In this document: positions 1 to 29,700 of the stretch, in pieces
Position numbering within the stretch: the first letter of the stretch is position 1
Layout of the letters: each line of letters starts with the position of its first letter
Origin: Nemertoderma westbladi
Lineage: Eukaryota; Animalia; Xenacoelomorpha
DNA length: 46,815 bases
Direction: 5' to 3'
Assembly: GCA_032718475.1 (NCBI GenBank)
Contig: JAUCBJ010001025.1
Span: 1 to 46,815, forward strand
Program-made: the position numbers and the translations under genes
The notes under the pieces: model-generated
What the model was told of the DNA's origin: nothing
Database searches by the model: none
What the model saw: only the letters and a program-made list of their open reading frames with translations

Positions 1-3000
1 TGAGGTTTGTGTTGGTAAGGATTGTAATATTAAGGGTTTGGTTGGTGAGGTTTGTGTTGGTAAGGATTGTAATATTAAGGGTTTGGTTGGTGAGGTTTGT
101 GTTGGTAAGGATTGTAATATTAAGGGTTTGGTTGGTGAGGTTTGTGTTGGTAAGGATTGTAATATTAAGGGTTTGGTTGGTGAGGTTTGTGTTGGTAAGG
201 ATTGTAATATTAAGGGTTTGGTTGGTGAGGTTTGTGTTGGTAAGGATTGTAATATTAAGGGTTTGGTTGGTGAGGTTTGTGTTGGTAAGGATTGTAATAT
301 TAAGGGTTTGGTTGGTGAGGTTTGTGTTGGTAAGGATTGTAATATTAAGGGTTTGGTTGGTGAGGTTTGTGTTGGTAAGGATTGTAATATTAAGGGTTTG
401 GTTGGTGAGGTTTGTGTTGGTAAGGATTGTAATATTAAGGGTTTGGTTGGTGAGGTTTGTGTTGGTAAGGATTGTAATATTAAGGGTTTGGTTGGTGAGG
501 TTTGTGTTGGTAAGGATTGTAATATTAAGGGTTTGGTTGGTGAGGTTTGTGTTGGTAAGGATTGTAATATTAAGGGTTTGGTAGGTGAGGTTTGTGTTGG
601 TAAGGATTGTAATATTAAGGGTTTGGTTGGTGAGGTTTGTGTTGGTAAGGATTGTAATATTAAGGGTTTGGTTGGTGAGGTTTGTGTTGGTAAGGATTGT
701 AATATTAAGGGTTTGGTTGGTGAGGTTTGTGTTGGTAAGGATTGTAATATTAAGGGTTTGGTTGGTGAGGTTTGTGTTGGTAAGGATTGTAATATTAAGG
801 GTTTGGTTGGTGAGGTTTGTGTTGGTAAGGATTGTAATATTAAGGGTTTGGTTGGTGAGGTTTGTGTTGGTAAGGATTGTAATATTAAGGGTTTGGTTGG
901 TGAGGTTTGTGTTGGTAAGGATTGTAATATTAAGGGTTTGGTTGGTGAGGTTTGTGTTGGTAAGGATTGTAATATTAAGGGTTTGGTTGGTGAGGTTTGT
1001 GTTGGTAAGGATTGTAATATTAAGGGTTTGGTTGGTGAGGTTTGTGTTGGTAAGGATTGTAATATTAAGGGTTTGGTTGGTGAGGTTTGTGTTGGTAAGG
1101 ATTGTAATATTAAGGGTTTGGTTGGTGAGGTTTGTGTTGGTAAGGATTGTAATATTAAGGGTTTGGTTGGTGAGGTTTGTGTTGGTAAGGATTGTAATAT
1201 TAAGGGTTTGGTTGGTGAGGTTTGTGTTGGTAAGGATTGTAATATTAAGGGTTTGGTTGGTGAGGTTTGTGTTGGTAAGGATTGTAATATTAAGGGTTTG
1301 GTTGGTGAGGTTTGTGTTGGTAAGGATTGTAATATTAAGGGTTTGGTTGGTGAGGTTTGTGTTGGTAAGGATTGTAATATTAAGGGTTTGGTTGGTGAGG
1401 TTTGTGTTGGTAAGGATTGTAATATTAAGGGTTTGGTTGGTGAGGTTTGTGTTGGTAAGGATTGTAATATTAAGGGTTTGGTTGGTGAGGTTTGTGTTGG
1501 TAAGGATTGTAATATTAAGGGTTTGGTTGGTGAGGTTTGTGTTGGTAAGGATTGTAATATTAAGGGTTTGGTTGGTGAGGTTTGTGTTGGTAAGGATTGT
1601 AATATTAAGGGTTTGGTTGGTGAGGTTTGTGTTGGTAAGGATTGTAATATTAAGGGTTTGGTTGGTGAGGTTTGTGTTGGTAAGGATTGTAATATTAAGG
1701 GTTTGGTTGGTGAGGTTTGTGTTGGTAAGGATTGTAATATTAAGGGTTTGGTTGGTGAGGTTTGTGTTGGTAAGGATTGTAATATTAAGGGTTTGGTTGG
1801 TGAGGTTTGTGTTGGTAAGGATTGTAATATTAAGGGTTTGGTTGGTGAGGTTTGTGTTGGTAAGGATTGTAATATTAAGGGTTTGGTTGGTGAGGTTTGT
1901 GTTGGTAAGGATTGTAATATTAAGGGTTTGGTTGGTGAGGTTTGTGTTGGTAAGGATTGTAATATTAAGGGTTTGGTTGGTGAGGTTTGTGTTGGTAAGG
2001 ATTGTAATATTAAGGGTTTGGTTGGTGAGGTTTGTGTTGGTAAGGATTGTAATATTAAGGGTTTGGTTGGTGAGGTTTGTGTTGGTAAGGATTGTAATAT
2101 TAAGGGTTTGGTTGGTGAGGTTTGTGTTGGTAAGGATTGTAATATTAAGGGTTTGGTTGGTGAGGTTTGTGTTGGTAAGGATTGTAATATTAAGGGTTTG
2201 GTTGGTGAGGTTTGTGTTGGTAAGGATTGTAATATTAAGGGTTTGGTTGGTGAGGTTTGTGTTGGTAAGGATTGTAATATTAAGGGTTTGGTTGGTGAGG
2301 TTTGTGTTGGTAAGGATTGTAATATTAAGGGTTTGGTTGGTGAGGTTTGTGTTGGTAAGGATTGTAATATTAAGGGTTTGGTTGGTGAGGTTTGTGTTGG
2401 TAAGGATTGTAATATTAAGGGTTTGGTTGGTGAGGTTTGTGTTGGTAAGGATTGTAATATTAAGGGTTTGGTTGGTGAGGTTTGTGTTGGTAAGGATTGT
2501 AATATTAAGGGTTTGGTTGGTGAGGTTTGTGTTGGTAAGGATTGTAATATTAAGGGTTTGGTTGGTGAGGTTTGTGTTGGTAAGGATTGTAATATTAAGG
2601 GTTTGGTTGGTGAGGTTTGTGTTGGTAAGGATTGTAATATTAAGGGTTTGGTTGGTGAGGTTTGTGTTGGTAAGGATTGTAATATTAAGGGTTTGGTTGG
2701 TGAGGTTTGTGTTGGTAAGGATTGTAATATTAAGGGTTTGGTTGGTGAGGTTTGTGTTGGTAAGGATTGTAATATTAAGGGTTTGGTTGGTGAGGTTTGT
2801 GTTGGTAAGGATTGTAATATTAAGGGTTTGGTTGGTGAGGTTTGTGTTGGTAAGGATTGTAATATTAAGGGTTTGGTTGGTGAGGTTTGTGTTGGTAAGG
2901 ATTGTAATATTAAGGGTTTGGTTGGTGAGGTTTGTGTTGGTAAGGATTGTAATATTAAGGGTTTGGTTGGTGAGGTTTGTGTTGGTAAGGATTGTAATAT

Positions 3001-3920
3001 TAAGGGTTTGGTTGGTGAGGTTTGTGTTGGTAAGGATTGTAATATTAAGGGTTTGGTTGGTGAGGTTTGTGTTGGTAAGGATTGTAATATTAAGGGTTTG
3101 GTTGGTGAGGTTTGTGTTGGTAAGGATTGTAATATTAAGGGTTTGGTTGGTGAGGTTTGTGTTGGTAAGGATTGTAATATTAAGGGTTTGGTTGGTGAGG
3201 TTTGTGTTGGTAAGGATTGTAATATTAAGGGTTTGGTTGGTGAGGTTTGTGTTGGTAAGGATTGTAATATTAAGGGTTTGGTTGGTGAGGTTTGTGTTGG
3301 TAAGGATTGTAATATTAAGGGTTTGGTTGGTGAGGTTTGTGTTGGTAAGGATTGTAATATTAAGGGTTTGGTTGGTGAGGTTTGTGTTGGTAAGGATTGT
3401 AATATTAAGGGTTTGGTTGGTGAGGTTTGTGTTGGTAAGGATTGTAATATTAAGGGTTTGGTTGGTGAGGTTTGTGTTGGTAAGGATTGTAATATTAAGG
3501 GTTTGGTTGGTGAGGTTTGTGTTGGTAAGGATTGTAATATTAAGGGTTTGGTTGGTGAGGTTTGTGTTGGTAAGGATTGTAATATTAAGGGTTTGGTTGG
3601 TGAGGTTTGTGTTGGTAAGGATTGTAATATTAAGGGTTTGGTTGGTGAGGTTTGTGTTGGTAAGGATTGTAATATTAAGGGTTTGGTTGGTGAGGTTTGT
3701 GTTGGTAAGGATTGTAATATTAAGGGTTTGGTTGGTGAGGTTTGTGTTGGTAAGGATTGTAATATTAAGGGTTTGGTTGGTGAGGTTTGTGTTGGTAAGG
3801 ATTGTAATATTAAGGGTTTGGTTGGTGAGGTTTGTGTTGGTAAGGATTGTAATATTAAGGGTTTGGTTGGTGAGGTTTGTGTTGGTAAGGATTGTAATAT
3901 TAAGGGTTTGGTTGGTGAGG
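1..3920. repeat. Intronic minisatellite, 45-bp unit (tgaggtttgtgttggtaaggattgtaatattaagggtttggttgg), about 87 copies, truncated by window start
   Basis: Exact 45-bp periodicity; only one substitution seen (t>a at 583); ends 56 bp before the NCX acceptor at 3976. Confidence 0.98.
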
Positions 3921-3976
3921 ATTGGTTGCTTTATGATTGTTACCTCATTACCTCTTCTGTACTCTTTGCGTTCCAG

Positions 3977-4103
3977 GGATGGATCTGGGAAGGGTGGCGA
4001 TTCTCTTACCTCGAAGGATTACAAACACAAGCAGGGGACTTTATTCTTTATGCACAACGAGTCAAAAAAGGACATCGAGATTGAAGTATCGCCCGATTCA
4101 AAA
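3977..4103 (+). CDS. NCX: Na+/Ca2+ exchanger (SLC8/NCX family), internal exon, Calx-beta domain part (DGSGKGGDSLTSKDYKHKQGTLFFMHNESKKDIEIEVSPDSK)
   Basis: Acceptor ttccag at 3971-3976 after a pyrimidine tract, donor gtaatt at 4104; Calx-beta-like DG..K....DY....GTL.F...E..K.I.I pattern; phase 0 fits next exon. Confidence 0.8.
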
Positions 4104-4298: not shown

Positions 4299-4404
4299 AA
4301 TTTGAATTTTGTGATTATACTTAAGAATCCTTGTGGTGGAACAGGTATTGGCGAAAATAGCGCCGCTGTAATGAATCTATACGAAAAAGGAAAATTTGAA
4401 GAAG
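4299..4404 (+). CDS. NCX: NCX exon, end of Calx-beta domain (NLNFVIILKNPCGGTGIGENSAAVMNLYEKGKFEE)
   Basis: Acceptor ttttgtag ending 4298, donor gtgagt at 4405; open frame, phase 0 in and phase 1 out, matching the flanking exons. Confidence 0.8.
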
Positions 4405-4410
4405 GTGAGT

Positions 4411-6193
4411 GGTAATGTATATCTTTTATATGTATATATATAATGTATATCTGTTATATGTATATATATATAACGTATATATTGTATATATATATACATA
4501 TATAATGTATATCTTTTATATGTATATATATATAATGTATATCTTGTATATGTATATCTATAATATATATATCTTGTATATGTATATCTATAATATATAT
4601 ATCTTGTATATGTATATCTATAATATATATATCTTGTATAAGTATATATATAATATATAATATATATCTTGTATATATATATATATATAATGTATATCTA
4701 TAATGTATATCTTGTAAATGTATATATATAATATATATCTTGTATATGTATATATATATAATGTATATCTTGTATATGTATATCTATAATATATATATCT
4801 TGTATATGTATATCTATAATATATATATCTTGTATATTTTTATCTATATATATATATCTTGTATATGTATATCTATAATATATATATCTTGTATAAGTAT
4901 ATATATAATATATAATATATATCTTGTATATGTATATATATATAATGTATATCTTGTATATGTATATATATATAATGTATATCTTGTATATGTATATCTA
5001 TAATATATATATCTTGTATATGTATATCATATATATAATGATATATCTTGTATATGTATATCTATAATATATATATCTTGTATATGTATATCTATAATAT
5101 ATATATCTTGTATATGTATATCTATAATATATATATCTTGTATATGTATATACTATATATAATATATATCTTGTATATGTATATATATATAATGTATATA
5201 CTTGTATATGTATATATATATAATGTATATCTTGTATATGTATATATATATAATGTATATCTTGTATATGTATATCTATAATATATATATCTTTGTATAT
5301 GTATATCTATAATATATATATCTTGTATATGTATATCTATAATATATATATCTTGTATAAGTATATATATAATATATAATATATATCTTGTATATATATA
5401 TATATATAATGTATATCTATAATGTATATCTTGTAAATGTATATATATAATATATATCTTGTATATGTAATATATATATAATGTATATCTTGTATATGTA
5501 TATCTATAATATATATATCTTGTATATGTATATCTATAATATATATATCTTGTATATTTTTATCTATAATATATATATCTTGTATATGTATATCTATAAT
5601 ATATATATCTTGTATAAGTTTTTATCTAATATATAATATATATCTTGTATATGTATATCTATATATATGTATATCTTGTATATGTATATATATATAATGT
5701 ATATCTTGTATATGTATATCTATAATATATATATCTTGTATATGTATATCTATAATATATATATCTTGTATATGTATATCTATAATATATATATCTTGTA
5801 TATGTATATCTATAATATATATATCTTGTATATGTATATCTATAATATATATATCTTGTATATGTATATCTATAATATATATATCTTGTATATGTATATA
5901 TATAATATATAATATATATCTTGTATATGTATATATATATAATGTATATCTTGTATATGTATATATATATAATGTATATCTTGTATATGTATATCTATAA
6001 TATATATATCTTGTATATGTATATCTATAATATATATATCTTTTATATGTATATCTATAATATATATATCTTGTATATGTATATATATATAATGTATATC
6101 TTGTATATGTATATCTATAATGTATATCTTGTAAATGTATATATATATATAATGTATATGTTGTATATGAATATATGTAATGTCTATCTGTAG
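4411..6193. repeat. AT-rich degenerate minisatellite, about 30-bp unit (tataatatatatatcttgtatatgtatatc)
   Basis: Clean 30-bp period at 5701-5900, degenerate elsewhere; starts directly after the donor at 4405. Confidence 0.92.
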
Positions 6194-7949: not shown

Positions 7950-8302
7950 GGAAATTTTGTCACAGAGATAAAACAACGGCACACAATTACAGTGGGTTGT
8001 TTTACCTCAAAGTTATCGTTAGTGTTGCGAACTTTATAAAAGCATTACATACCGTTGACATTTAGACACACATTGTCTGCTGTATCACACCAGTTCTCAA
8101 TACTACATGAGATCTTGAAGGAGTTAACATTATATACTACAACTACAATATTGTAGTTAGTATGACTGTAAGTGAGTTGGACATACTGTATGTGAGCAAT
8201 TAATGTTGTATAAATGTGAGAGTCTAACCATTTTAATTAATATTACAGACCGAAGGAATACCACCTCCATTATAACACAGGGAATGAATACAGGTCTAGT
8301 GT

Positions 8303-9212
8303 CCGACCGACCGACCGACCGACCGACCGACCGACCGACCGACCGACCGACCGACCGACCGACCGACCGACCGACCGACCGACCGACCGACCGACCGACC
8401 GACCGACCGACCGACCGACCGACCGACCGACCGACCGACCGACCGACCGACCGACCGACCGACCGACCGACCGACCGACCGACCGACCGACCGACCGACC
8501 GACCGACCGACCGACCGACCGACCGACCGACCGACCGACCGACCGACCGACCGACCGACCGACCGACCGACCGACCGACCGACCGACCGACCGACCGACC
8601 GACCGACCGACCGACCGACCGACCGACCGACCGACCGACCGACCGACCGACCGACCGACCGACCGACCGACCGACCGACCGACCGACCGACCGACCGACC
8701 GACCGACCGACCGACCGACCGACCGACCGACCGACCGACCGACCGACCGACCGACCGACCGACCGACCGACCGACCGACCGACCGACCGACCGACCGACC
8801 GACCGACCGACCGACCGACCGACCGACCGACCGACCGACCGACCGACCGACCGACCGACCGACCGACCGACCGACCGACCGACCGACCGACCGACCGACC
8901 GACCGACCGACCGACCGACCGACCGACCGACCGACCGACCGACCGACCGACCGACCGACCGACCGACCGACCGACCGACCGACCGACCGACCGACCGACC
9001 GACCGACCGACCGACCGACCGACCGACCGACCGACCGACCGACCGACCGACCGACCGACCGACCGACCGACCGACCGACCGACCGACCGACCGACCGACC
9101 GACCGACCGACCGACCGACCGACCGACCGACCGACCGACCGACCGACCGACCGACCGACCGACCGACCGACCGACCGACCGACCGACCGACCGACCGACC
9201 GACCGACCGACC
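8303..9212. repeat. (CCGA)n microsatellite, about 227 perfect units
   Basis: Uninterrupted tetranucleotide run of 910 bp. Confidence 0.98.
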
Positions 9213-10214: not shown

Positions 10215-10293
10215 ACTTGTTAGCGGAAAGAGTAGCCAACGTATTAGCAGACAGGGAAGAGGAGGACGAGACATGGTCTGGTCAGTTCCGAAG
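10215..10293 (+). CDS. NCX: NCX exon (DLLAERVANVLADREEEDETWSGQFR)
   Basis: Acceptor ttctcttag ending 10214, donor gttcgt at 10294; W..QF motif of the NCX cytoplasmic loop; phases 1 and 2 fit. Confidence 0.85.
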
Positions 10294-10448: not shown

Positions 10449-10571
10449 CGCTATGATGATAGAGCAAGATGAGGATGAAGATGGCAAACCCATTCCCCCT
10501 AGCAACGTTGCTTACGTCATGCATTTTCTAACGTTTCTATGGAAAATTCTATTCGCCTTTATTCCTCCACG
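10449..10571 (+). CDS. NCX: NCX exon (SAMMIEQDEDEDGKPIPPSNVAYVMHFLTFLWKILFAFIPPR)
   Basis: Conserved NCX motif YVMHFLT..WK.LFAF.PP; acceptor tttag ending 10448, donor gtaagt at 10572. Confidence 0.93.
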
Positions 10572-11086
10572 GTAAGTATTAATACTAAGAAAGTAGTTGA
10601 TCGTTGCTATAGTTACTGTTGCTATGATGTAGTCGGTGATTTCTTTTCCGACGTCAGTTTTAATGTTTGAGAGTATCTATCTATGTCTGTGTGATGGTTT
10701 GTCTGTCTGTCTGTTTTCCTTTCTTCTACATTTTAACGGACACACTGGTAGAGGGAAAGACAGCGATAACTCGACCAAAAAGATTTCGCCAATCCGTTTT
10801 AAGATTTCAAATAAATCCCCATTAAATTCTGCATCAGATGAAATAAAAAACCAAAAATGTGAAAATGTTATCCAAAGAGAGGGGTAGAGGGTAACCCCCC
10901 CCCCCCCCCCCCTTATTGATCCTTATTGATTTATCTACACACTTCTGTGACGGTGGTGTCGCCACCCAAATAATATAATAATAATAATATATTGCTACTG
11001 GTTGCGTATATGTTAGATAAATAATAAAATCTCTTGTTATTTATACTTTATATCCCTCCTTCATTGTTCTACTTTATGACTTTCAG

Positions 11087-11316
11087 TAAATTACTTGGTG
11101 GATTCGCGTCATTCTTCTCCTCTTTGGTTGTGATTGGCGGGTTGGTGATCCTTGTCGAGCAGTTCGGTAACCTATTGGGATGCGTCATCGGTCTGAGGAA
11201 TAGCATTTCCGGTATCACAATCGTCGCCCTGGGAACCAGTCTGCCAGACACCTTCGCAAGTCGAACCGCCGCCATGATGGATTCACATGCTGACGCCTCT
11301 ATCGGCAATATAACTG
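11087..11316 (+). CDS. NCX: NCX exon with alpha-2 repeat ([12 protein letters not shown]...ADASIGNIT)
   Basis: Hallmark [10 protein letters not shown] alpha-2 motif; acceptor tttcag ending 11086, donor gtgagt at 11317. Confidence 0.95.
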
Positions 11317-11410
11317 GTGAGTTGTTGTGGTGCTGAAGGATAACATAAAACCAATGTTTCATTTCATTCTGTAATACTGAATACTCCAATGTGTTTGTAT
11401 TTATTTTCAG

Positions 11411-11592
11411 GTAGTAACAGCGTTAACGTTTTCCTTGGTTTGGGTTTACCTTGGGTAATGAAGGCAATGTATTTGTACTACAACAAAGGCGTCGCAACTT
11501 TCCACGTAAAGACAACCAACCTAAATCTCGCCGTTTATCTCTTTACATCAATCGGTACAGTCTGTATAATATTCCTTCTTCTTAGGAGAAAG
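11411..11592 (+). CDS. NCX: NCX exon (GSNSVNVFLGLGLPW...FLLLRRK)
   Basis: GSN.VNVFLG.G..W motif; acceptor ttttcag ending 11410, donor gttagc at 11593, phase 0. Confidence 0.95.
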
Positions 11593-11645
11593 GTTAGCCA
11601 TTTTATTATTCAGTCATTTTATTTTATGTTATGAATATTTGGTCC

Positions 11646-11804
11646 GGGAAATTCGACGCAAATAACAGCTGTTTACTCTCAAAAATAAAACTGTAACCTG
11701 TTCTATTGTGGTTAGTTTATTGTTTTGGTAAGAATTACGTGCCACTGTAACCTGCTCAATTCCCTTAATTGATAATCTAACATTGGGATTTGCGTCCAGT
11801 ACCC
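11646..11804. mobile_element. MITE-like non-autonomous element, copy 1
   Basis: Imperfect terminal inverted repeats gggaaattcgacgcaaat / atttgcgtccagtaccc; body (actctcaaaaataaaactgtaacctg...) closely matches 23007-23118. Confidence 0.65.
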
Positions 11805-11853
11805 CTCCCCCCATGTTTTTAATGAAATGTTAAAACGTATAAAAGATTCAAAC

Positions 11854-12741
11854 TTTGTTTTTGTTTCAGTTTATCGGTGGATAGTTAGGCGGGCCAGCGC
11901 CAACTAAATGGGTTTGTTTTTGTTTCAGTTTATCGGTGGAGAGTTAGGCGGGCCAGCGCCAACTAAATGGGTTTGTTTTTGTTTCAGTTTATCGGCGGTG
12001 AGTTAGGCGGGCCAGCGCCAACTAAATGGGTTTGTTTTTGTTTCAGTTTATCGGCGGTGAGTTAGGCGGGCCAGCGCCAACTAAATGGGTTTGTTTTTGT
12101 TTCAGTTTATCGGCGGTGAGTTAGGCGGGCCAGCGCCAACTAAATGGGTTTGTTTTTGTTTCAGTTTATCGGCGGAGAGTTAGGCGGGCCAGCGCCAACT
12201 AAATGGGTTTGTTTTTGTTTCAGTTTATCGGCGGTGAGTTAGGCGGGCCAGCGCCAACTAAATGGGTTTGTTTTTGTTTCAGTTTATCGGCGGAGAGTTA
12301 GGCGGGCCAGCGCCAACTAAATGGGTTTGTTTTTGTTTCAGTTTATCGGCGGTGAGTTAGGCGGGCCAGCGCCAACTAAATGGGTTTGTTTTTGTTTCAG
12401 TTTATCGGCGGAGAGTTAGGCGGGCCAGCGCCAACTAAATGGGTTTGTTTTTGTTTCAGTTTATCGGCGGTGAGTTAGGCGGGCCAGCGCCAACTAAATG
12501 GGTTTGTTTTTGTTTCAGTTTATCGGTGGAGAGTTAGGCGGGCCAACGCCAACTAAATGGGTTTGTTTTTGTTTCAGTTTATCGACGGAGAGTTAGGCGG
12601 GCCAGCGCCAACTAAATGGGTTTGTTTTTGTTTCAGTTTATCGGCGGAGAGTTAGGCGGGCCAGCGCCAACTAAATGGGTTTGTTTTTGTTTCAGTTTAT
12701 CGGCGGTGAGTTAGGCGGGCCAGCGCCAACTAAATGGGTTT
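11854..12741 (+). repeat. 59-bp tandem array x15 made of the NCX last 3' splice site plus the first 14 codons of the last exon
   Basis: Acceptor AG at 11869+59n up to 12695; unit tttgtttttgtttcag|tttatcggcggtgagttaggcgggccagcgccaactaaatggg. Confidence 0.97.
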
Positions 12742-12815
12742 CTGCGTTGTTTCTTTTGCTTCTATGGGTTGTTTATGTAACTCTATGCAGTTTACGCTCC
12801 TATAACTACATATAA
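12696..12815 (+). CDS. NCX: NCX terminal exon (FIGGELGGPAPTKWVSALFLLLLWVVYVTLCSLRSYNYI*)
   Basis: GGELGGP motif and final TM helix typical of NCX C-termini; only this 15th acceptor reads into the TM helix; TAA at 12813-12815. Confidence 0.9.
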   Translation, partial: FIGGELGGPAPTKWVSALFLLLLWVVYVTLCSLRSYNYI

Positions 12816-12942
12816 TGGAGATGTCATGGAGTTCGCTCGATTATTGTCTGCCTCAAATGGAAGGCCTTGGGAAGATTTAAGTGTCCTTTGAGTTTTTACT
12901 TCGCTATTGATGGCAAATTTTATACCAATCATAAATTGCGCC

Positions 12943-15348
12943 GGAACCAAGTTCGGAACCTTTACAAACGACCCGGAACCTTTACCAATAACCACTCCCT
13001 GAACCTTCTACATACTTGGAACCTTTAGCAATGACCAGTCCCTGAACCTTCTACGTACTTGGAACCTTTAGCAATGACCAGTCCCTGAACCTTCTACATA
13101 CTTGGAACCTTTACAAATGACCCGGAACCTTTACCAATGACCAGTCCCTGAACCTTCTACATACTTGGAACCTTTAGCAATGACCAGTCCCTGAACCTTC
13201 TACATACTTGGAACCTTTAGCAATGACCAGTCCCTGAACCTTCTACGTACTTGGAACCTTTAGCAATGACCAGTCCCTGAACCTTCTACGTACTTGGAAC
13301 CTTTAGCAATGACCAGTCCCTGAACCTTCTACGTACTTGGAACCTTTAGCAATGACCAGTCCCTGAACCTTCTACATACTTGGAACCTTTACAAATGCCA
13401 ATGACCCGAAACCTTCACCAATGAACAGTCCCTAAACCTTCTACATACTCGAAACCTTTACCAATGACCCGGAACCTTTACCAATGACCAGTCCCTGAAC
13501 CTTCTACATACTTGGAACCTTTAGCAATGACCAGTCCCTGAACCTTCTACATACTTGGAACCTTTAGCAATGACCAGTCCCTGAACCTTCTACGTACTTG
13601 GAACCTTTAGCAATGACCAGTAGTCCCTGAACCTTCTACATACTTGGAACCTTTAGCAATGACCAGTCCCTGAACCTTCTACGTACTTGGAACCTTTAGC
13701 AATGACCAGTCCCTGAACCTTCTACATACTTGGAACCTTTAGCAATGACCAGTCCCTGAACCTTCTACGTACTTGGAACCTTTAGCAATGACCAGTCCCT
13801 GAACCTTCTACGTACTTGGAACCTTTAGCAATGACCAGTCCCTGAACGTTCTACGTACTTGGAACCTTTAGCAATGACCAGTCCCTGAACCTTCTACATA
13901 CTTGGAACCTTTACAAATGCCAATGACCCGAAACCTTCACCAATGAACAGTCCCTAAACCTTCTACATACTCGAAACCTTTACCAATGACCCGGAACCTT
14001 TACCAATAACCACTCCCTGAACCTGCTATATACTTGGAACCTTTACCAACGACCCGGAACCTTTACCAATAACCACTCCCTGAACCTTATACCTTCTCGG
14101 AACCTTTACCAATGACCCGGACCCTTTACCAATGACCAGTCCCTGAACCTTCTACATACTTGGAACCTTTAGCAATGACCAGTCCCTGAACCTTCTACGT
14201 ACTTGGAACCTTTAGCAATGACCAGTCCCTGAACCTTCTACATACTTGGAACCTTTACAAATGACCCGGAACCTTTACCAATGACCAGTCCCTGAACCTT
14301 CTACATACTTGGAACCTTTAGCAATGACCAGTCCCTGAACCTTCTACATACTTGGAACCTTTAGCAATGACCAGTCCCTGAACCTTCTACGTACTTGGAA
14401 CCTTTAGCAATGACCAGTCCCTGAACCTTCTACGTACTTGGAACCTTTAGCAATGACCAGTCCCTGAACCTTCTACGTACTTGGAACCTTTAGCAATGAC
14501 CAGTCCCTGAACCTTCTACATACTTGGAACCTTTACAAATGCCAATGACCCGAAACCTTCACCAATGAACAGTCCCTAAACCTTCTACATACTCGAAACC
14601 TTTACCAATGACCCGGAACCTTTACCAATGACCAGTCCCTGAACCTTCTACATACTTGGAACCTTTAGCAATGACCAGTCCCTGAACCTTCTACGTACTT
14701 GGAACCTTTAGCAATGACCAGTCCCTGAACCTTCTACGTACTTGGAACCTTTAGCAATGACCAGTCCCTAAACCTTCTACATACTTGGAACCTTTACAAA
14801 TGCCAATGACCCGAAACCTTTACCAATGACCAGTCCCTGAACCTTCTACGTACTTGGAACCTTTAGCAATGACCAGTCCCTAAACCTTCTACATACTTGG
14901 AACCTTTACAAATGCCAATGACCCGAAACCTTTACCAATGACCAGTCCCTAAACCTTCTACATACTCGAAACCTTTACCAATGACCCGGAACCTTTACCA
15001 ATGACCAGTCCCTGAACCTTCTACATACTTGGAACCTTTAACAATGACCAGTCCCTAAATCTTCTACATACTTGGAACCTTTACAAATGCCAATGACCCG
15101 AAACCTTTACCAATGACCAGTCCCTGAACCTTCTACATACTTGGAACCTTTAACAATGACCCGAAACCTTTACCAATGACCAGTCCCTAAACCTTCTACA
15201 TACTTGGAACCTTTACCAATGACCCGGAACCTTTACCAATGACTAGTCCTTGAACCTTCTACATACTCGGAACCTTTACCAATGACCCTGAACCTTTACC
15301 AATGACCAGTCAGTCCATAAACCTTCTGCATACTCGGAACCTTTACCA
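12943..15348. repeat. Compound minisatellite, 43-bp main unit (ggaacctttagcaatgaccagtccctgaaccttctacatactt) with 20-bp sub-units, downstream of the NCX stop
   Basis: Recurrent GAACCTT core; higher-order duplication with 1144-bp offset (13111/14255, 13391/14535). Confidence 0.95.
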
Positions 15349-18246: not shown

Positions 18247-19119
18247 TTACAATTTGCTTTTATTGTCTCCCTTGTTTATGAATTTCTCCCACCACTTCGG
18301 TCTTTCGAAGACCCCCGGTTGCTTAGTAACGTGGTTATAAATGTTTTCGTAGATATTCCCATCTGCTTCGCCGAGAACCGAGTTAAGTACAAAATCCGGT
18401 GGCGCGAAAACATCAACCAAAGCGACAGCATCAGCTTTAAGCTCATCTGATAGCTCAATAATGCCTTCTCGAACGTCCCTGACAATATCCGACGAATATG
18501 CGAATCCTCCCTCGTAGAAACTCGATAGGTACTTCTCAACAACCCAGAGGCCATAGAGACAACATAAGGACCGCAATACCGGCTGTACATCAGCTTCGGT
18601 CTGTCCAATAAAGTTTATAAAGGATTCCATAGCAACGCAATGTATAAATATCTTACTCAACTCCTGAGCAAAGTAAACCTGGCTTTCATTCCGCGCCCGC
18701 CAAACATTCGCACCGCTTTTTAACAGACAGTCGACTTTTTCGCTGGTCTTCTTGATATGATAACAAACCAGCCATCTCGACAACCATAGAACTCTCGACG
18801 GATTGCGGGTTAAGTCTTTCAGTTTGTATTTGTTACTAAGTATTTCCTCCATGCGGCTAAGGAAGGAAACACTTCCTCCAGGTTTGATGTTATTAAACCG
18901 AATTGCTTGGTAGATTCCCAACAGATAGTTGGCAGTTTGCTGCAGTATCACGGTGTTGTCGCCCTCGTACGTGTTGTTTGGATCGTTGTTGTCGCGAAGT
19001 TCCCCGAACCTACTGGTTGCTAGGTAACCGTGACCCCCGCACGCTTCCCTACACTCCTGTATGCAGTTCTGGGCCATCCAGGACGCCACTGCCTTACTAG
19101 CACAGGAACACGCATGGAC
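18247..19119 (-). CDS. ACOX3: Peroxisomal acyl-CoA oxidase 3, exon 2 (C-terminal, ends in PTS1 SKL)
   Basis: QECREACGGHGY and TYEGDN motifs, C-terminal SKL*; acceptor ataaag at 19125-19120, phase 0. Confidence 0.92.
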   Translation of the reverse strand, partial: VHACSCASKAVASWMAQNCIQECREACGGHGYLATSRFGELRDNNDPNNTYEGDNTVILQQTANYLLGIYQAIRFNNIKPGGSVSFLSRMEEILSNKYKLKDLTRNPSRVLWLSRWLVCYHIKKTSEKVDCLLKSGANVWRARNESQVYFAQELSKIFIHCVAMESFINFIGQTEADVQPVLRSLCCLYGLWVVEKYLSSFYEGGFAYSSDIVRDVREGIIELSDELKADAVALVDVFAPPDFVLNSVLGEADGNIYENIYNHVTKQPGVFERPKWWEKFINKGDNKSKL

Positions 19120-20087
19120 CTTTATGGAGAGTTAGATAGTTAGAATTGATAAAAAGTATTTGAAAACAACCGAGCAAAGGGTCGTTAAGTAAACTTTAGG
19201 AAAACTATTTATTTTGGCAGCAAAACATTTCATTTTAATAAATTAATTTAGTTTAAAACTAAAATAATTGTTTAGACTCATTATCCTTTAGTAGAGTAGT
19301 TCATTATTACATTAAGGGGGGGGGGGGGGGGGGGGGGTCAGAAATCATGTGTTGAAATTTGATTTCTGTGCAGTCCAGACCATAAGCTACACGTATTAAA
19401 AAAAAATGAGAATGCTATTTCTGGAGAAGGCCCAAATTAATTTCGACCAAACTTTGCCAGGGTGTCACATAAAAATTTAGTCCATTTCTCATTCAAGTTA
19501 TCATAGCATGAAAACTTTTCAATGAAACATAAATAAAAATATTCAAGTAGTTCTCACATGAACTACAATTTAATGAATCATAAACCACCTTCTCAGAATG
19601 AAGACTTCTCAAGAAATATGATTTTTAAAATCCCCGATCGGGTAAAATGTTGTTTTCCAGAAAACCCGTTTAAAGATAAAGGTATAGAAATCAGTTCATA
19701 AATATCGTAATAATTATTTTAAAATTAGAAATCTATCATGTTTAAACTATATTAATATCATTATTCATTAAAAGCCTGGTCACATTCATATGGAATTATG
19801 AAAACTCCCATAGTAAATAATCACAATAGTCAGGGAGGGCCAATCACCTACTACTCGTTATTTATGATTGCAATGCGGTATTTTGCCGGAAGCTTGAAGA
19901 ATGTGGCCTGTTATTCAATAATCATAAAACAACTGCCTTCTATATCAAGATGTGATGCTCTTTTATGTGAAATTATAAATTTAAGCACCCATGGTTATAA
20001 CCGTTGTTAACGTGGTTACCATGGTTATAAGTACATAAGAGGCAATCAAATATTGAACTGAGCTGATCATTTCCTGGGTGAGCTGAT

Positions 20088-20555
20088 GTGATAATAGTTT
20101 ATCTCAACGCACTGTTGCAGGGCTCAGTGATAATAGTTTATCTCAACGCACTGTTGCAGGGCTCAGTGATAATAGTTTATCTCAACGCACTGTTGCAGGG
20201 CTCAGTGATAATAGTTTATCTCAACGCACTGTTGCAGGGCTCAGTGATAATAGTTTATCTCAACGCACTGTTGCAGGGCTCAGTGATAATAGTTTATCTC
20301 AACGCACTGTTGCAGGGCTCAGTGATAATAGTTTATCTCAACGCACTGTTGCAGGGCTCAGTGATAATAGTTTATCTCAACGCACTGTTGCAGGGCTCAG
20401 TGATAATAGTTTATCTCAACGCACTGTTGCAGGGCTCAGTGATAATAGTTTATCTCAACGCACTGTTGCAGGGCTCAGTGATAATAGTTTATCTCAACGC
20501 GCTGTTGCAGGGCTCAGTGATAATAGTTTATCTCAACGCACTGTTGCAGGGCTCA
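20088..20555. repeat. 39-bp minisatellite x12 (gtgataatagtttatctcaacgcactgttgcagggctca) in the ACOX3 intron
   Basis: 468 bp = 12 x 39; one substitution seen. Confidence 0.97.
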
Positions 20556-21162
20556 GAGTTGCAAAGCATCTTCTCAATGAGTAGAAATGAAGAAAAATAT
20601 GGATACTTTCTGTTGATCGATTCTGCACTCATTGAAATTAAGGGACTATAACAACTAATATTCATATTTCGTATTAATATAGTTCGTTTCCCGCACCTGG
20701 TTCGCTTACTGTTACTAAATTAACTGAAAGTCAACAACTACTCAGAATTTTTGAAACGAAAACCGTTTTCATCACCAAATTCACCATTGAATTCTGGTTT
20801 AGAAACGGTGATAAAAAAAATATCGAAAATTTTGACCAATTTGCACTCTACCCCCCCCCCCCCCCCTAACTTTATCTATGATCATGGTCACAAATATATT
20901 GCTGATAAGAACTCACTTTTGAGATGATAGTTCTTTAGGCTGAAAAGGAAAGAAAACAACCCAGAACTAAGGGTATAAAATCAGTGATCAAGAGAAAGGA
21001 GCAGGTTACAGTTTCATCAACCAAAACATTATCAAAAACCCGGAACTATGGGTAAAGTGAAAGATTTAAATTTGGCCAGAATTTGTTTATGTTTAGGCGG
21101 GGACTTCCAATTCCAATTTTGTATATATTTTCGCTTGTTTTCATCCATTCTAACTAGCCAAC

Positions 21163-22371
21163 CTCATGTATTAGCTCTTCGTTATTTCCATTGTCGCCCC
21201 CGTGTGTTATTTTATTGAACTGCCGACAGAGTTTGCGGCTGTAGCAGTCCATTGCGTACGCCGCCGCTAGGTACGGCAGCAGACGGCACTGCTGACTCTG
21301 GTATTCTAGAACTGGAATTTCGTGGAGTTTTCCAGTCGACGGCTCGTGAAACTGCTTCCGGACGGCGGAGTAACGAATCGCGATGACGAGAGAGAGTTTC
21401 ATATTGACGACTCCGATGGTTGTTATGCCAACGCGACCGCCGGACAACGAGCCCAGAGTGGCCGCGAATCGTTTATCGTCGTTGCTATAGCGACTAACGT
21501 ACTCCCCACCCTCGCTCACGTCGCTGTGTTTATTTAGAAGATTTTCCCGCGGAATCCGGTAGTTATTAAAGGAAACGAATCCGTTGTCGATCCCGTTGAG
21601 ACCCAGTTTCTTACCGATGTCGCCAACAGTAACGCCATCTAGCGGGAGCAAAGTAGTAGCTTCGCGAATCGGCGTAACGAATCCGTGTAACCCGTGGCAA
21701 CTGTCGTCTCCAGCGTATAGTTGCGCGAAAAGAACTGCGTGCGTCGCCGACTTTCCGAGGTTTCCCACCCAGAATTTGGTTGCCTCGGTATCCGGAGTGT
21801 TTATAAGAAACTCCCGCGTGTCGGCGTCGTACCGTGCCGTAGTTCGGGTCGACTTTACGTCGGAACCGTGGGATAATTCCGTCAACGCGAAACAACCGAA
21901 CAATCCCAGATCGGAAGTCTCCTCTACGAACCGACGATGTCTCGCTGTTCCCATGGCAACCACTGCCGAGCCGAACATTTGGAAATGAAGAACGAACTTT
22001 GAGAGGCAATTCCAGTCGAACATTCCCATGGAATGCTGAAAGTTGTACATCAGTAAGGGATCTTTAGCCAACCCCTCTTGCGTCACCAACTGGCATTCTA
22101 TTATTCTCCTTGTTCTCAACGCCGTCACCTCCCTGAGATCATCGTGACTCTCGCCTGCTTTTTGGGAACTTTTCGCGAACACTGGTTCCCGCTCTATTAG
22201 TTCCCAAACTCTCCGTTGATACAGCAGACTGTCACCTCCGTACCAAAGGAAACGTAGTCGTCGCCAATCAAAGCTCGCCCTGTCTCTGTAGGCAGTGAGA
22301 CCCCCAGCGGGGAGATCAGGAATCAGAGTTAGTATGTCAAGTTTCTGTCCTTCGCTTGAGACAGCAGACAT
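21163..22371 (-). CDS. ACOX3: Peroxisomal acyl-CoA oxidase 3, exon 1 (start may be ATG 22371 or 22395)
   Basis: YR.RASFDW, GCFALTELSHGS, KFWVGNLGK, GLNGIDNG, AIRYSAVRKQF motifs characteristic of ACOX3-type oxidases; donor GAG|gttggc at 21162. Confidence 0.92.
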
Positions 22372-22717
22372 TTCTAGATTATTGCATAACAGCATCCAAT
22401 AGGAAATATATTAGATGCTTTATGTGACATATTTTGATATTCCGAAAAAGCAAAAGCCTTATTGTAATGAAGAAAAGTAAAAAAAATCACTAAAAAACGC
22501 CAAACTTTAAAAAATTGAATGTAAAATTGAAGTGCATAATTTTATCACAAATATATACGTAAATAATACTACTGGTTGCTAGGAAGGAGTTGTTTCTATG
22601 TATTGTAGTGTGGAACACCTTAGTGTGTCCATATGGATTCAATCACATTGAGGTGTAACTGAAGCAAATCTGGTATGTGAAGGTGTTTGAAGGCAGCATG
22701 ATTGATGTGTTTTATAA

Positions 22718-22956: not shown

Positions 22957-23162
22957 GGGAAACTGGACGCATAAAAATTCATCCCAGACGCACATAACTG
23001 CTGATCACTCTCAAAAATAAAACTGTAACCTGATCTATTGTGTTTAGTTTATTGTTTTGGTTAAAATAACGTGTCACTGTAACCTGCTCCTTTCCCCAAA
23101 TTGAGAATTTAACATTGATGAGGGATATTAATTCGCCAAGATGGGATTTGCGTCCAGTTCCC
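22957..23162. mobile_element. MITE-like non-autonomous element, copy 2
   Basis: Terminal inverted repeats gggaaactggacgca / tgcgtccagttccc; body matches 11675-11785 and carries an extra segment near 23118-23141. Confidence 0.68.
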
Positions 23163-23736: not shown

Positions 23737-26700
23737 TTATTTGAAATCACACAACAAGGCAACGCCTCGTAGGATCCAGAAGTCTGGGTGTTGGTCCGTG
23801 TGCAAAGAGAGCGAACATATGTAATTGAGATCGGTTCGTGATGGTTTCTTATAGACTGGACATTCGTACAACCGCTCCTTAGAGTTACTGGCACCAGTCT
23901 GCAAGTCGGCATAGATACGGACTACCGGTAATGGAGTGAAGAGAACTTTCATAGTGGATTCTGTGAGTTTGGATGACTTTCGGTTCCACCCTCCGCCATC
24001 CAGAAATAAACCGTAAACGAAGACCCCCTCGACGGGGGAATGACTCACTTCTTCTCGCATCATTCTTGTAACCTCGTTAGCTAGAACGACGTCATCTAGA
24101 GCCCAACCGGTGTGCGATCGGGTTGTCTCCTGACGCATCGCCGTGAGGAAACCCTGCGGGTTAAACATTCCCGTCATCCAGAAGCAGTTAGGTCGACCTT
24201 CGAGAATCCAGGATCGCATTTGGGCATTGCGATCTAGCAACTCAGTAAACCAGAAACCCAAGGTGGAGCTCAGCCAGGAGACTTTGGCCCAGGTGTCCGG
24301 CACTCGTGCATTGAACATGTTGTCTAGGGCATCCTGGAGGATCTCATTCATTATGATGCTGCCCTCGATGGCCAACTTGAGGTCATGGAGGGTGGTGCGA
24401 ACCGATGTTATCACTCTCTGCATCCGATGCAACTCTTGGCGTAGGAATATATTCAGCGGTTGAGTGACGCCGTATGATTTAAGTCTTTCTTTTACTTTGA
24501 ACGGGTTGTAATCCGGAGGTAATTTCTCCTCCATTTCGGAGGCCATCCGAAGAACTTGTGTTTCTCTACTTTCCCCACTAGAGGCGTTTGATTCCTTTGG
24601 TTGTATATTCAATATAGTAGCGAGACAATCATTCGCGAAGTTGGTCTGGTAGGTGATGTCTGCATTGGGATGCAGACCAAATGCTTGTGGGGTATCAATT
24701 AAAGGAAGCTTGTCAATGTGGTTACGAATTTCCTCAAGTTCACTATCTCTTGGTATCGTGTACCCAATGTAGAAATTAAACTTCCGATCGAAAAGGTTTT
24801 CCCCGAACCAAACTCTGGCAAATGTGTTAAGCAACCTCTTATCAAAATCGTCTGTAACTCTTCCACCATAATGGACTTCCCCTATCATATATCGGATGGT
24901 AACCCAGGATACCCCGCGCTTGGTGTCTAAGTCATCCAGATGATTCTGACACACCATTACTGTCGCGCTAAAGTCAGCTTGGTTGAACTCATATGGAATG
25001 TTCCAGCCAAGGGGACCGAATTTACGGCGCTCTTGAACGACGCTATGCAGGAATGCAACTGCATACATCAGAGGTTTCCATTCCATTCGGTGTGAAATAT
25101 CCAGCTGTTCCTTAGTAACTTCTGCGTAAGTTCGCTTCAACCCAGCCTTCAAGCCAAGTGGAGGATCATTTGTGAATTTAATACTCGCTTGGAGTAATGA
25201 AATAGGGAACAACACATGGGGTTCCGTTGTTATCCAAACTCTCATTGCTGGGTCTATTTGCTCTGTTGTGGTAATCAACTCTAATAATTCGCTCATAAAA
25301 TTTAAATCTAAATGACAGTTTTGGAAGAGACACCAGCCTCCATTACGCATCATTTCCTTGAGTATGCGTCTCGCATGAACCTCTTGCCCTTGACCCATAG
25401 AGATGTCTTTGCAAATGATATTGTTATATTTCGCTAATTTCTCTATATTGGACGTGGGGTCGGATCCCATGCTCAGGAAGCAGATCAGGGGACTTCGGCA
25501 ATCTGATTCTTTCTTCCACATCTCCTCTAGATTTGTAACAACTGGAGCTGTGAACTCTTCTCCCAATGACGATGCCACATACATTCTCGCCTGACTAAGG
25601 ATTCTGTCTGGACACCAACATCGAATGAGAAGGAGTTTGTTGAATGTTGATAGGTTGTCATAGCCATCGGGAATGGTCACTGCTTCAGGTGCCTCGCTCT
25701 CAAACCAAGACTTCCAACTTTTCTCATTCTGATTCACCTGCTCCAAAATATTGTGAAACAATGGTAACTTAGAGAGTTGAACCAAATTTAACCAGGTTGT
25801 GTCCGTGATCCACCGTTTAGGTTTTGTTGGAGCCGAGATGAGATCAAGCATAGCACCACCCATAATAAATGTTTGGAATTCTTCATATCTTATGTTTTTT
25901 AAATTAATATCAATTTTTAGAGCCAATAATATAGTAAACATAAATTTGTGCATTTCATATAAACCTCTAGCTGTGTACCTAAATACTTCAAAAGTTAGAT
26001 ATTCCATTATGTTATGCACTCGTCTACTCGTGATGGGACTTTTAACCGATTGCACCATTGAATTGTGAAATAGGTTGAGGAATTGTTTCAATGATGTCTG
26101 ATACATTTCATTAACCAGAGAAATTTCTACAATTAAGAAATATAGAATGGATCCACGATTAGCTATTGGTCGGTATTCTTCTCTGGCTGCATTTATTTGT
26201 AATTCAGTTTGGGCAGCTATTGTAAGTTTTTCTTTAACCTCATTGGATACTGCCTTAGTGACACCTAATACTTCAATAAGGGACTGGTCTTCAACCAATG
26301 AACCCTCCACAGATGACAACTTCTGCAATAAATTTTCCTCAAGTTCCTGTAGTTTCTCTTTATTTGCTGTAACTTCATCAGCAAGACGAGTGCTCTCACT
26401 TTCCAATTCACTTTTCTCGTTTTTGGTAACAAGACCCAGTAACTGATCCTCAAGTCCCTTCATCGTCACAGTGAAATCTATTATAGAAGTTCGAGAAGAT
26501 ATCTCTGGTGTGTAATTAGGATTTGATAACTTTGTTGTTATGTAGAGACGAAATCCTTTAGATATATCAATCTCTTTGTCACCAACTGTAACTTTAAATG
26601 TTGAACCTGATTTGAAATAGATTTTTTCTAAAACATTGTCAAGACATGGGTCAAGCTCATCTCTCACATCCTCCAGTAACAGAGGCTGACCTAGAGATAT

Positions 26701-29700
26701 CGCATCCTCTAAATGAGTTCGGAAATACTTGTTGTCTAATTGTGTCACTATCATGTTGTTTTCACTTTCTTTATTTTTGATCCAATATTTAGCCTGAATT
26801 TGTGGGTCAATTACAAGAGGGTACCGAGAAGAATTGGTTACAATGACACCATTCTGTATACTAAGTTCATCACTAGGCAACCCTTGCAGGTTCCACCGAG
26901 AAACTGTGACTTTATCAACCAGCATATCATTAATATCAATTGATTGACTGTAAGGAATCGACCTGTCACCAATTATTTGTCTTGTTCGTGTTATAAGTTT
27001 TTGTCGGAATAGTTGATTGAATGGACCAGCATATGAAAGAAACCCTGTAATTAACAACGCATCACCCATTAATTTAAACAACTGTTCTTTAAACAGTCGA
27101 CTGCTCTCTGTCCACCGAATGCGCTCCCCTCCCAAACCCTGGATCAATTTGCTAGCACTCTCCATCTTAAAGCGACAGGCGTCCAACCGGTCAACTAAAT
27201 TCTGTTTGAATCCCATTACTGTATCATACCTCACCTGCACTTTCATCAATTCTTCTTCCTTTTCATTCAAAGCCACCTGTGCTTTTTCTAATTCATTATT
27301 AGCACTGACCAGTCGGTGCTCCTGAGCAGCTAGTGAAGCCTTTAAGGGTAAGACTTCTCTGTTAACAGAAAAAAACTTGGACATGGCAATTGTCCATGCT
27401 AGCAATCCAGCAACATTTCCAGACACCTTCTTAGCTGTTTCCATGTTATAATCAGCCATTTTTAAATAAGGTTCCATTAATTCAACAATCTCATCATTGA
27501 TACAGTCTTTGTCAAAATTTAGCAAATTAGATAAGAACTTTGAATCACCCATAACCTTCAGCGATTCACCCCATGATGCTTTCGGACATGTTTTTTCCAA
27601 ATCTGGAGAGCAAGGATCGAGCGGTTTCTGGAATAAAATGAGAACGCAGTCCAAAATCCTCATAATGAGATGAGGAGGTTTACCTAGCTTTCGAACAGTC
27701 GCTATATCAACGGCTTTAATTGTCTGCAATGCCATCTCAGCTTCCTCAAGAGCTGGTCTTGCTACTTCCAACTTTTCCTCAGCAATAGCCTTGTCACTCT
27801 CTATTAAATCAACTAGATCCTGGGCGATATTCTTAACGGACTCTACTTGTAGTTTCACTTTCTCAGCCGCATGGGCAAACTCTGCCACTTCTTTAAGGAC
27901 AAGATCTGCCTCTACTGTTGCTTTATCTAGCTCTACCTCTGTGACGACCAATTCCTTTTGCAGTTCATTAACACTTACAGTGGCCTCATCTAGCTTTAGG
28001 AGACCGGTATCCATTTTTTGATACGAATTTTTCAGAGTAGCACTTCTTTCTACATATATACTGTTATAACCATTAAGAAATGACAGATAACTTTTGGGGG
28101 TAACATGAGTTTGGCGTCGAAATCTCTCAAAATATGACGAGCACATTTCAGTTACTTCCACATGGACATCTGCCATTGCCTCCACTAGATAATTCTTGAT
28201 GTGCTGATAGTTTTGAAAATCTAAGTCTCTCGAATACTGAACAGAAACTGCAGTCAAAGCATCACGCGGCCATATTTGGAACCAGTCAATAGTGCAGCCC
28301 GAGATTAGAGCAGGAAATTTTAAAGCTCTGCTTTGAAATTGATTCCCAGCAGACGAGAAACAAAGAGTTACATGGAAATTCTTTCCTACTCGGCTGTAAA
28401 AGTAATCAATTAAATTTTCTTGGGTGGGTGGATGTCTGGGAAATTCTTTTTTCATAATTGGGATTAAATTGCTGCATATTTCATCCATTTCATCCTTGGC
28501 AAACAAATTTGACACTTCGCCACTAGCTAAAACATTGTTCATTGGTTCCAAAAACATTTCATCTTTAATATCATTATCAGTAAAGATGAAAGTTAATCCT
28601 TTTCCCTGCTCACCTGTTATGCGATACATCACCTTGAGATCAGTTAGAAAGTCGGCAACATTGTAGGAACGTGTAAGAGTAATTCGGTAGGTACTATAAC
28701 CAGCTATAAAGGAGGCCAATTTCGTGAGACTCTGCTTGCCACAGCCACCTACACCAACTAACAACGCATGTCCCTTCCATGTGCGAATAATACGGGAGAT
28801 TCTCATCAAATGTATCATAGCATCATCGAAAAATACCAAGTCCATTTCCCCCCCTCTAGATTCTTCATTGCATTCAGCCATGTGTTCCAGGAGCTTGGAT
28901 TTTAATTTATCAAATCCTGGAATGGGTTCATAAACCTTTGGAGCCATAAGATCATCATCGTCGACCTCATCACCTGTTGGTTCGGGGGCTTCCCTGAGAA
29001 AATCAACAAAATATGAATCTTCTTTTAGAAAGTCATTACATTCAATTTTCAGTTCCGATTGAAGTAGGTCTCTCACTGTCGCATTAAACCATTGCTTATC
29101 TACCTGGTTCACAAATCGATCAGCAACAACACGTTCTATTTCATGTCGCCAAAGCTCAAAGAGTCTGGATCTCGAGTTTATAACATCCGCAGTGGAATTC
29201 AGCATCCCTTGCCAAATTCTACTCAAATCCCTGAGATTAAAAACATAATGAAATTTTCCTGGAATTGGTAACATTTTGATTTTCGTACATTGCCATATGA
29301 GCCTGGTTAATGAGACTAGTTGACTAACACATTCTACTACCTCTGTACAAAAACCTCTCTCAGTAATAAAGTGCCCACATCCAATAGTGTTATAGATCTT
29401 ATCAATACTGTTGTTGCTAGGAAGAGTGCAATTAAAAACATTAAATTGACGACGAAGTCGTTCAGGAATGTTGTTTCTCCCTCCTCCTGGATGAATCATT
29501 GCAGCCAGAAACTGGACATCAACTATTGTCGTAAAATCTCCAGGTTTATCCAAGTTATAGAAACCAGAAACATCTAATAGTTGCCTGACGATTTCATTGG
29601 TCACTTGATCACCCCACTCATTAATTACTGGCATGTTAATGTCATCAATGAATACTGTCATTTTCTTACCAGCCCGAGGTCCATAAGTGTGACCAACATG

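Follow-up and report, generated by a model that had tools for sequence, protein, structure and literature searches.

A minisatellite repeats the last intron-exon junction of an NCX-like gene fifteen times in Nemertoderma westbladi

The window considered here is the whole stretch of DNA that was analysed, namely 46,815 nucleotides of contig JAUCBJ010001025.1 from the xenacoelomorph Nemertoderma westbladi (assembly GCA_032718475.1), read on the forward strand. It covers the 3′ part of an NCX/SLC8-like gene, whose 5′ half with the alpha-1 repeat falls outside the window, together with an ACOX3-like gene and an axonemal dynein heavy chain gene. Eight NCX exons lie between 3977 and 12815, separated by GT-AG introns, and form one open frame of 336 amino acids. 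The junction between the last intron and the last exon of this gene is occupied by a minisatellite in which every unit carries an acceptor site. The features are the following (a slash marks a splice boundary; X1, X2 and X3 are sequencing runs):

3977-4103, 4299-4404 and 8249-8293, plus strand: upstream coding exons 1-3 of the NCX/SLC8-like gene (tblastn, frame)
10215-10293, 10449-10571, 11087-11316 and 11411-11592, plus strand: upstream coding exons 4-7 of the same gene (tblastn, frame)
11593-11869, plus strand: final NCX intron, 277 nt as measured to the first acceptor, with AAG/GTTAGC as its donor
11646-11785, no strand assigned: high-copy dispersed element of about 140 bp inside the last NCX intron
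11854-12741, plus strand: minisatellite of 59 bp x 15 at the last NCX intron-exon junction (TRF; junction contigs in X1, X2 and X3)
11882-11884, plus strand: in-frame TAG of copy 1, which ends every path through the AG at 11869 (read from the assembly)
11929-12469, plus strand: six potential in-frame, stop-free cassettes of 69 nt with the acceptors of copies 2, 3, 4, 6, 8 and 10 (predicted)
12696-12815, plus strand: last NCX coding exon, preceded by the AG at 12694-12695, with the stop at 12813-12815, encoding the last transmembrane helix
36225-44763, minus strand: donor-spanning array, a second array of this kind (mirage, see below), in the axonemal dynein heavy chain gene

Compared exon by exon with tblastn, the NCX exons track NCX homologs, except for the 45-nt exon at 8249-8293, which has no tblastn match and is based on frame and splice signals. 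The exon at 11087-11316 has 709 homologs, the closest with 73% identity; among the matches listed, the closest proteins are the invertebrate NCX-like proteins of a hemichordate, a bivalve and a coral, with 67-73% identity over this one exon. The top homologs bear the domains PF01699 (Na_Ca_ex) and PF03160 (Calx-beta), and the gene has in common with the NCX/SLC8 family the Calx-beta part, the alpha-2 repeat, the GGELGG motif and the final helix. In particular, the tail of 39 amino acids reached through the AG at 12695 matches residues 908-944 of human NCX1 (E 9e-5), and a GGELGG-type motif is found in 80 of 120 NCX homologs among the matches listed, followed in 72 of these 80 by a hydrophobic helix. 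A tblastn search with five homologs gave no second NCX last exon in the window. Canonical AATAAA is absent between the NCX stop and 17348, with CATAAA at 12930, and for this reason a 43-bp array with higher-order structure (12975-15348), which begins 160 nt past the stop, may be part of the 3′ UTR or adjoin it. Other observations on this gene are that an AT-rich array (4415-6189) and a perfect (CCGA)227 run (8303-9212) each start some 10 nt downstream of an NCX donor and that, by eye, a frameshifting intron of 86 nt within the last exon (12706-12791) could be delimited by the GTGAGT of the last array copy and a TGCAG further on. The dispersed element in the last intron, possibly a MITE, has a second copy at 22987-23117 (88% identical) and thousands of related contigs per run, and it is present as well in run X5, where the NCX gene has no coverage.

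The array was delimited by TRF at 11854-12741, with a period of 59, 15.1 copies and 97% matches. Each unit joins 17 nt of the intron end, made of a T-rich tract and CAG, to the first 42 nt of the NCX last exon, so that 15 acceptor AGs end at 11869+59k, the final one at 12695. The sequence-only reading had described a 59-bp unit with a T-rich tract, a CAG and a branch-point-like ACTAAAT: the length holds and the tract and CAG are kept in 15 of 15 units, but ACTAAAT comes from the exon, where it belongs to codons T-K-W, and it precedes AG2-15 but not AG1. In fact, the sequence upstream of AG2-15 is identical, with a branch-like CTAAA at -22, whereas AG1 stands in a different context, where the best match is TTAAA at -37. 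The copies differ by 2.2% on average, and the exact sequence of copy 15 recurs in copies 3, 4, 5, 7, 9 and 11. Five sites vary in the exon part of the unit; two are synonymous and the others are the stop of copy 1, a G>D change in copy 13 and an A>T change in copy 12. The stop and these changes, which affect the conserved GGELGG motif or its vicinity, are as would be expected of non-coding copies. It had also been proposed that synonymous variants would identify the copy used, which does not work with so few synonymous sites and with a last copy that is the same as six inner ones. Finally, the trinucleotide TTT is common to both junction ends of the unit, which makes it likely that the array began as one small duplication.

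Sequencing reads bear on whether the array exists in the animal. Among six runs listed, three (X1, X2 and X3) cover the stretch; all are DNA and they come from two samples of two studies, one of which may be the source of the assembly. Absence of the array from raw reads had been named in advance as a result that would refute the reading. In fact, contigs crossing unit-unit junctions are present in both samples, at 4-20x the depth of the last exon. Over 12645-12940, an 89-nt contig spans the junction at a depth of 117 in X1 and 67 in X2, and X3 yields four array pieces at depths of 48-352, one with a loose end continuing into a further unit, against last-exon contig depths of 15.9 (X1), 15.4 (X2) and 17.4 (X3). 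The observed ratios of array to unique depth are thus 7.4x in X1, 4.4x in X2 and up to 20x in X3, against 9.9x, 8.5x and 13.6x, respectively, predicted from the 15 copies of the window; since they range over 4-20x and differ even between two runs of one sample, depth shows multiple copies of the unit in both samples but does not give the copy number. The last exon and the sequence downstream (12712-12940) are letter-identical in X1, X2 and X3, three of the four runs compared (X4 has no contig there), and the contigs over 11050-11675 show one difference, which is synonymous. Furthermore, X3 carries a G>A change at exon offset +10 that none of the 15 copies in the window has, which hints that the array is polymorphic.

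The consequences of each acceptor were determined by joining it in silico to the exon at 11411-11592, one splice each. Through copy 1, the protein stops after four residues (FIGG) at the TAG 11882-11884; through copies 2-14, it stops 11 residues past the 14 shared residues FIGGELGGPAPTKW. Only copy 15, when used alone, yields the 39-amino acid tail with the conserved last helix, and the best 19-residue hydropathy is 2.4 in this tail against 1.0 in the tail of copy 2. These results agree with what the sequence-only reading had claimed, i.e., that copy 1 bears an in-frame stop, that copies 2-14 run into a stop in the next unit and lose the last transmembrane helix, and that, with one splice, only AG 12695 leads to a full protein, 14 look-alike acceptors being passed over. 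In NCX proteins, TM7-TM10 are reported to be part of the exchanger core domain (PMC10897212), and therefore the loss of the last helix would likely be disabling.

The reading that we prefer, and consider probable, is that the array is tolerated: the last acceptor would be the one used, with the other 14 copies removed as part of the intron and a normal protein as the result. The repeat likely arose from one small duplication of a 59-bp piece of the intron-exon junction and grew through slippage or unequal exchange, like the other minisatellites of the window. As for the choice of the acceptor, AG2-15 are alike upstream and folding is of no help, so AG15 is distinguished only by what lies downstream, the whole exon and the 3′ end. 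The advantage of AG15 would lie in the full exon and 3′ end signals that follow no other copy, while in copies 1-14 a 42-nt exon stub would lead straight into the branch point and tract of the next unit. Such exon-adjacent selection would be expected to leak to some extent to upstream copies. RNA structure was considered as the selector and rejected: every unit can fold into a hairpin, but AG15 is not more exposed than AG2-14. One open frame over eight exons and an unchanged last exon speak for the preferred reading, but the intact frame is weak evidence for a working gene, the copies differing so little from one another.

Competition between acceptors has been studied in other systems, and the experiments cited for the use of distal sites are mammalian or amphioxus. 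The array had been presented as defying the rule that the first AG after a branch point is preferred; however, this rule applies to closely spaced AGs, within a few bases of each other and served by one branch point, and acceptors more than 12-20 nt apart are described as having their own tract and branch point and as competing earlier (PMC9225289). According to the same source, among human acceptors at least 20 nt apart the upstream one is preferred overall, most strongly with short introns and more weakly under exon definition, an overall preference that counts against use of the last copy. Also against it are the facts that the upstream copies are transcribed first, that the intron up to AG1 measures merely 277 nt, and that a strong donor, lacking in eight other copies, lies 10 nt beyond the AG of copy 15; under exon definition, the six 69-nt cassettes, with a good acceptor and a strong donor, could be recognised too. 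For complete duplications that leave a short exon stub, by contrast, published cases point to the distal site, among them CBS 844ins68 and the amphioxus mirages treated below. With duplicated beta-globin acceptors and a proximal exon of 14, 55 or 205 nt, only the distal site was reported to be used, although inefficiently (PMC5389562), and duplicated acceptors gave a proximal to distal ratio of 1:6 when splicing was coupled to transcription and of 1:25 otherwise (PMC1450099).

The internal donors lead to a different view of the locus. An A/T variant at exon offset +12 creates a GCG/GTGAGT donor in 7 of 15 copies (3, 4, 5, 7, 9, 11 and 15; in copy 15, GTGAGT follows base 12705). With a matrix built from 12 predicted window donors, a small training set whose leave-one-out median is about 8 bits, GCG/GTGAGT reaches 10.6 bits, a value higher than 10 of these 12 donors obtain when left out, and the TGG/GTTTGT present in the unit 5.1 bits. 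An acceptor joined to GCG/GTGAGT in the next copy would define the 69-nt cassettes, whose last exonic bases are 11997, 12056, 12115, 12233, 12351 and 12469, and up to three of them are predicted to be chainable with introns of at least 70 nt. Among 130 single-cassette paths, 18 are productive, 6 with the strong donor and 12 with the weak one, none through AG1. These predicted paths show the feature expected for intron gain under the Rogers model, namely that use of the donor and acceptor of the duplicated segment keeps the frame. On this basis, the upstream acceptors may be rescued by GCG/GTGAGT, with a sizeable share of the mRNA containing one to three in-frame exons of 69 nt (23 amino acids each), an intron gain in progress that we regard as unlikely. 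It draws on the donor strength, on six stop-free cassettes with onward introns of 226-698 nt, on 18 productive paths with the direct one counted, on the alternation of copies without and with the donor from 6 to 11, on a model already proposed for mirages (PMC3087553) and on human paralogs in which new introns from boundary repeats have been reported (PMC2812944). Nevertheless, a cassette end placed at random in the following unit would be productive at 11 of 59 positions, and a kept frame is therefore neither surprising nor, by itself, a sign of selection; copy 15 has the donor too, without an obvious partner for it; the GGELGG-type motif occurs twice in none of the 80 motif-bearing homologs among the matches listed; and the insert would separate the two final helices of the core domain as described in PMC10897212 (TM7-TM10). 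If intron gain were true, the number and composition of the repeats would set a ladder of isoforms, with 0-3 extra modules of 23 residues before the last helix, varying between individuals.

It is quite unlikely, in our judgement, that the array damages the gene, with proximal acceptors dominating, the last helix lost and the gene a hypomorph or young pseudogene. In favour of such damage are the reported advantage of upstream sites in acceptor competition (PMC9225289), the co-transcriptional head start of upstream copies (PMC1450099) and the truncation of the protein in 14 of 15 single-splice outcomes; however, the array occurs in two samples of two studies (one possibly the assembly's source) with the last exon unchanged and the frame open, and the published mirages are described as harmless (PMC3087553, PMC3902484).

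Very improbable is the earlier proposal that TGG/GTTTGT acts as a donor and releases 42-nt cassettes, each adding a module of 14 amino acids. Its reading frame stood up: these cassettes are in frame, stop-free for copies 2-13, and account for the 12 single-cassette paths with the weak donor; moreover, a similar GTTCGT is found in two predicted window donors and the unit junction provides a +5 G that is missing in copy 15. The donor itself fared worse, with 5/9 matches to the U1 consensus and a score below the window median, stronger donors being close by; furthermore, the adjacent intron would measure 17 nt, the shortest of 11 window introns measured being 89 nt, and copies 12 and 13 bear amino-acid changes. 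As for an assembly artefact, short-read contigs collapse the array, and its copy number and the copy-1 TAG come from the assembly only, with no contig seen over the 5′ flank and copy 1, but the depths of the junction contig in X1 and X2 and of the array pieces in X3 largely refute it for the array as such, and we consider it highly improbable.

The last-acceptor reading also draws support from the repeat content of the window, in which minisatellites are abundant (11 arrays, two of them boundary-spanning). The second boundary-spanning array lies on the donor side of the dynein gene and consists of 37/47-bp units, with 29 nt of exon end plus AG/GTRAGT, spread over 8.5 kb; its 194 AG/GTRAGT motifs are all the minus-strand matches of the window. 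The authentic donor follows 44734 and the next exon is at 35437, with an intron of 9296 nt; on human DNAH5, the exon before this intron ends at residue 678 and the one after it begins at residue 680. Joined, they give an open frame of 4261 codons, and a single donor among the 194, the exon-adjacent one, is productive. With random placement of 11 repeat seeds outside pure coding sequence, 0.66 boundary-spanning arrays are expected and the probability of at least two is 0.14, so enrichment of arrays at splice sites is not shown for this window and two such arrays, being near chance, need no targeting or function.

Some observations on the same repeats and genes are worth recording. The dynein gene is DNAH5/8-like, and each unit has CAG/GT with CTGAT about 27 nt upstream, a sequence likeness to recursive splice sites; its exon at 23760-35437 (minus strand) is single, open and about 11.7 kb long, the upstream exons of the same gene measuring 125-380 nt. 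At the beginning of the window, a 45-bp x 87 array (1-3928, 99% matches, G-only skew) has its start outside the window, contains GTAAGG and GTGAGG in each unit, with two stop-free frames, and ends 48 nt before an NCX acceptor; it was considered as a third mirage because of its donor-like motifs, but this is not supported, as no frame fits the expected upstream exon. The ACOX3-like gene (18330-22374, minus strand), whose protein has about 50% identity to all homologs among the matches listed, has one intron (19120-21163) with a 39-bp x 12 array.

The NCX array offers a natural test substrate for acceptor choice, with 15 near-identical acceptors before a terminal exon and the order of transcription against the right site, and in the same animal and the same window it stands beside the 194 donor copies of the dynein gene. 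Were mRNA to include the 69-nt cassettes, the locus would directly illustrate the model of intron gain put forward for mirages. At a practical level, boundary arrays can mislead gene predictors and lead to annotations of truncated proteins.

Three known systems are close to this locus. In the CBS allele 844ins68, a 68-bp duplication of an intron end and exon start, as in NCX, the upstream copy bears a damaging change in both cases, and for CBS the distal site is reported to be strongly favoured, giving normal mRNA (PMC2630376, PMC1802585). However, CBS has 2 copies before an internal exon and NCX 15 before a terminal one, and the mechanism described for CBS relies on G runs between the two sites, whereas in NCX G triplets are present in every copy, the last included. 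In intron 7 of human F7, a 37-bp VNTR (IVS7) carries five to nine identical donors, of which only the exon-adjacent one is reported to be used (PMC1557585); this is the direct analogue of the dynein array, on the donor side and with an exon-adjacent donor, the dynein array having 194 donor motifs instead of five to nine, and it differs from the NCX array in that on the donor side the order of transcription aids the right site, NCX being on the acceptor side.

The third system is that of the amphioxus "mirages," minisatellites of variable length that span an exon-intron boundary and have been described at both types of boundary, with units of 10-160 bp (PMC3087553), in the genes for Adh3, troponin C, the globins BflGb6/BflGb9 and PGBD5 (PMC3087553, PMC3902484). 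The Adh3 data and the RT-PCR of globins suggested no interference with splicing (PMC3087553, PMC3902484), and intron gain from mirages has been proposed (PMC3087553, Fig. 7 legend). The NCX array is a mirage: its unit spans the boundary (17+42 nt), its 59 bp lie within the sizes reported, and splice signals are kept in 15 of 15 units. It departs from the amphioxus mirages in that its target is a terminal exon, with tract and AG in all 15 units, and in that one variant creates strong donors inside the array and, with these, potential in-frame cassettes; moreover, harmless splicing is backed by RT-PCR in amphioxus, whereas for the NCX array it is a prediction. As read here, the NCX array is an ordinary member of this described class of repeats.
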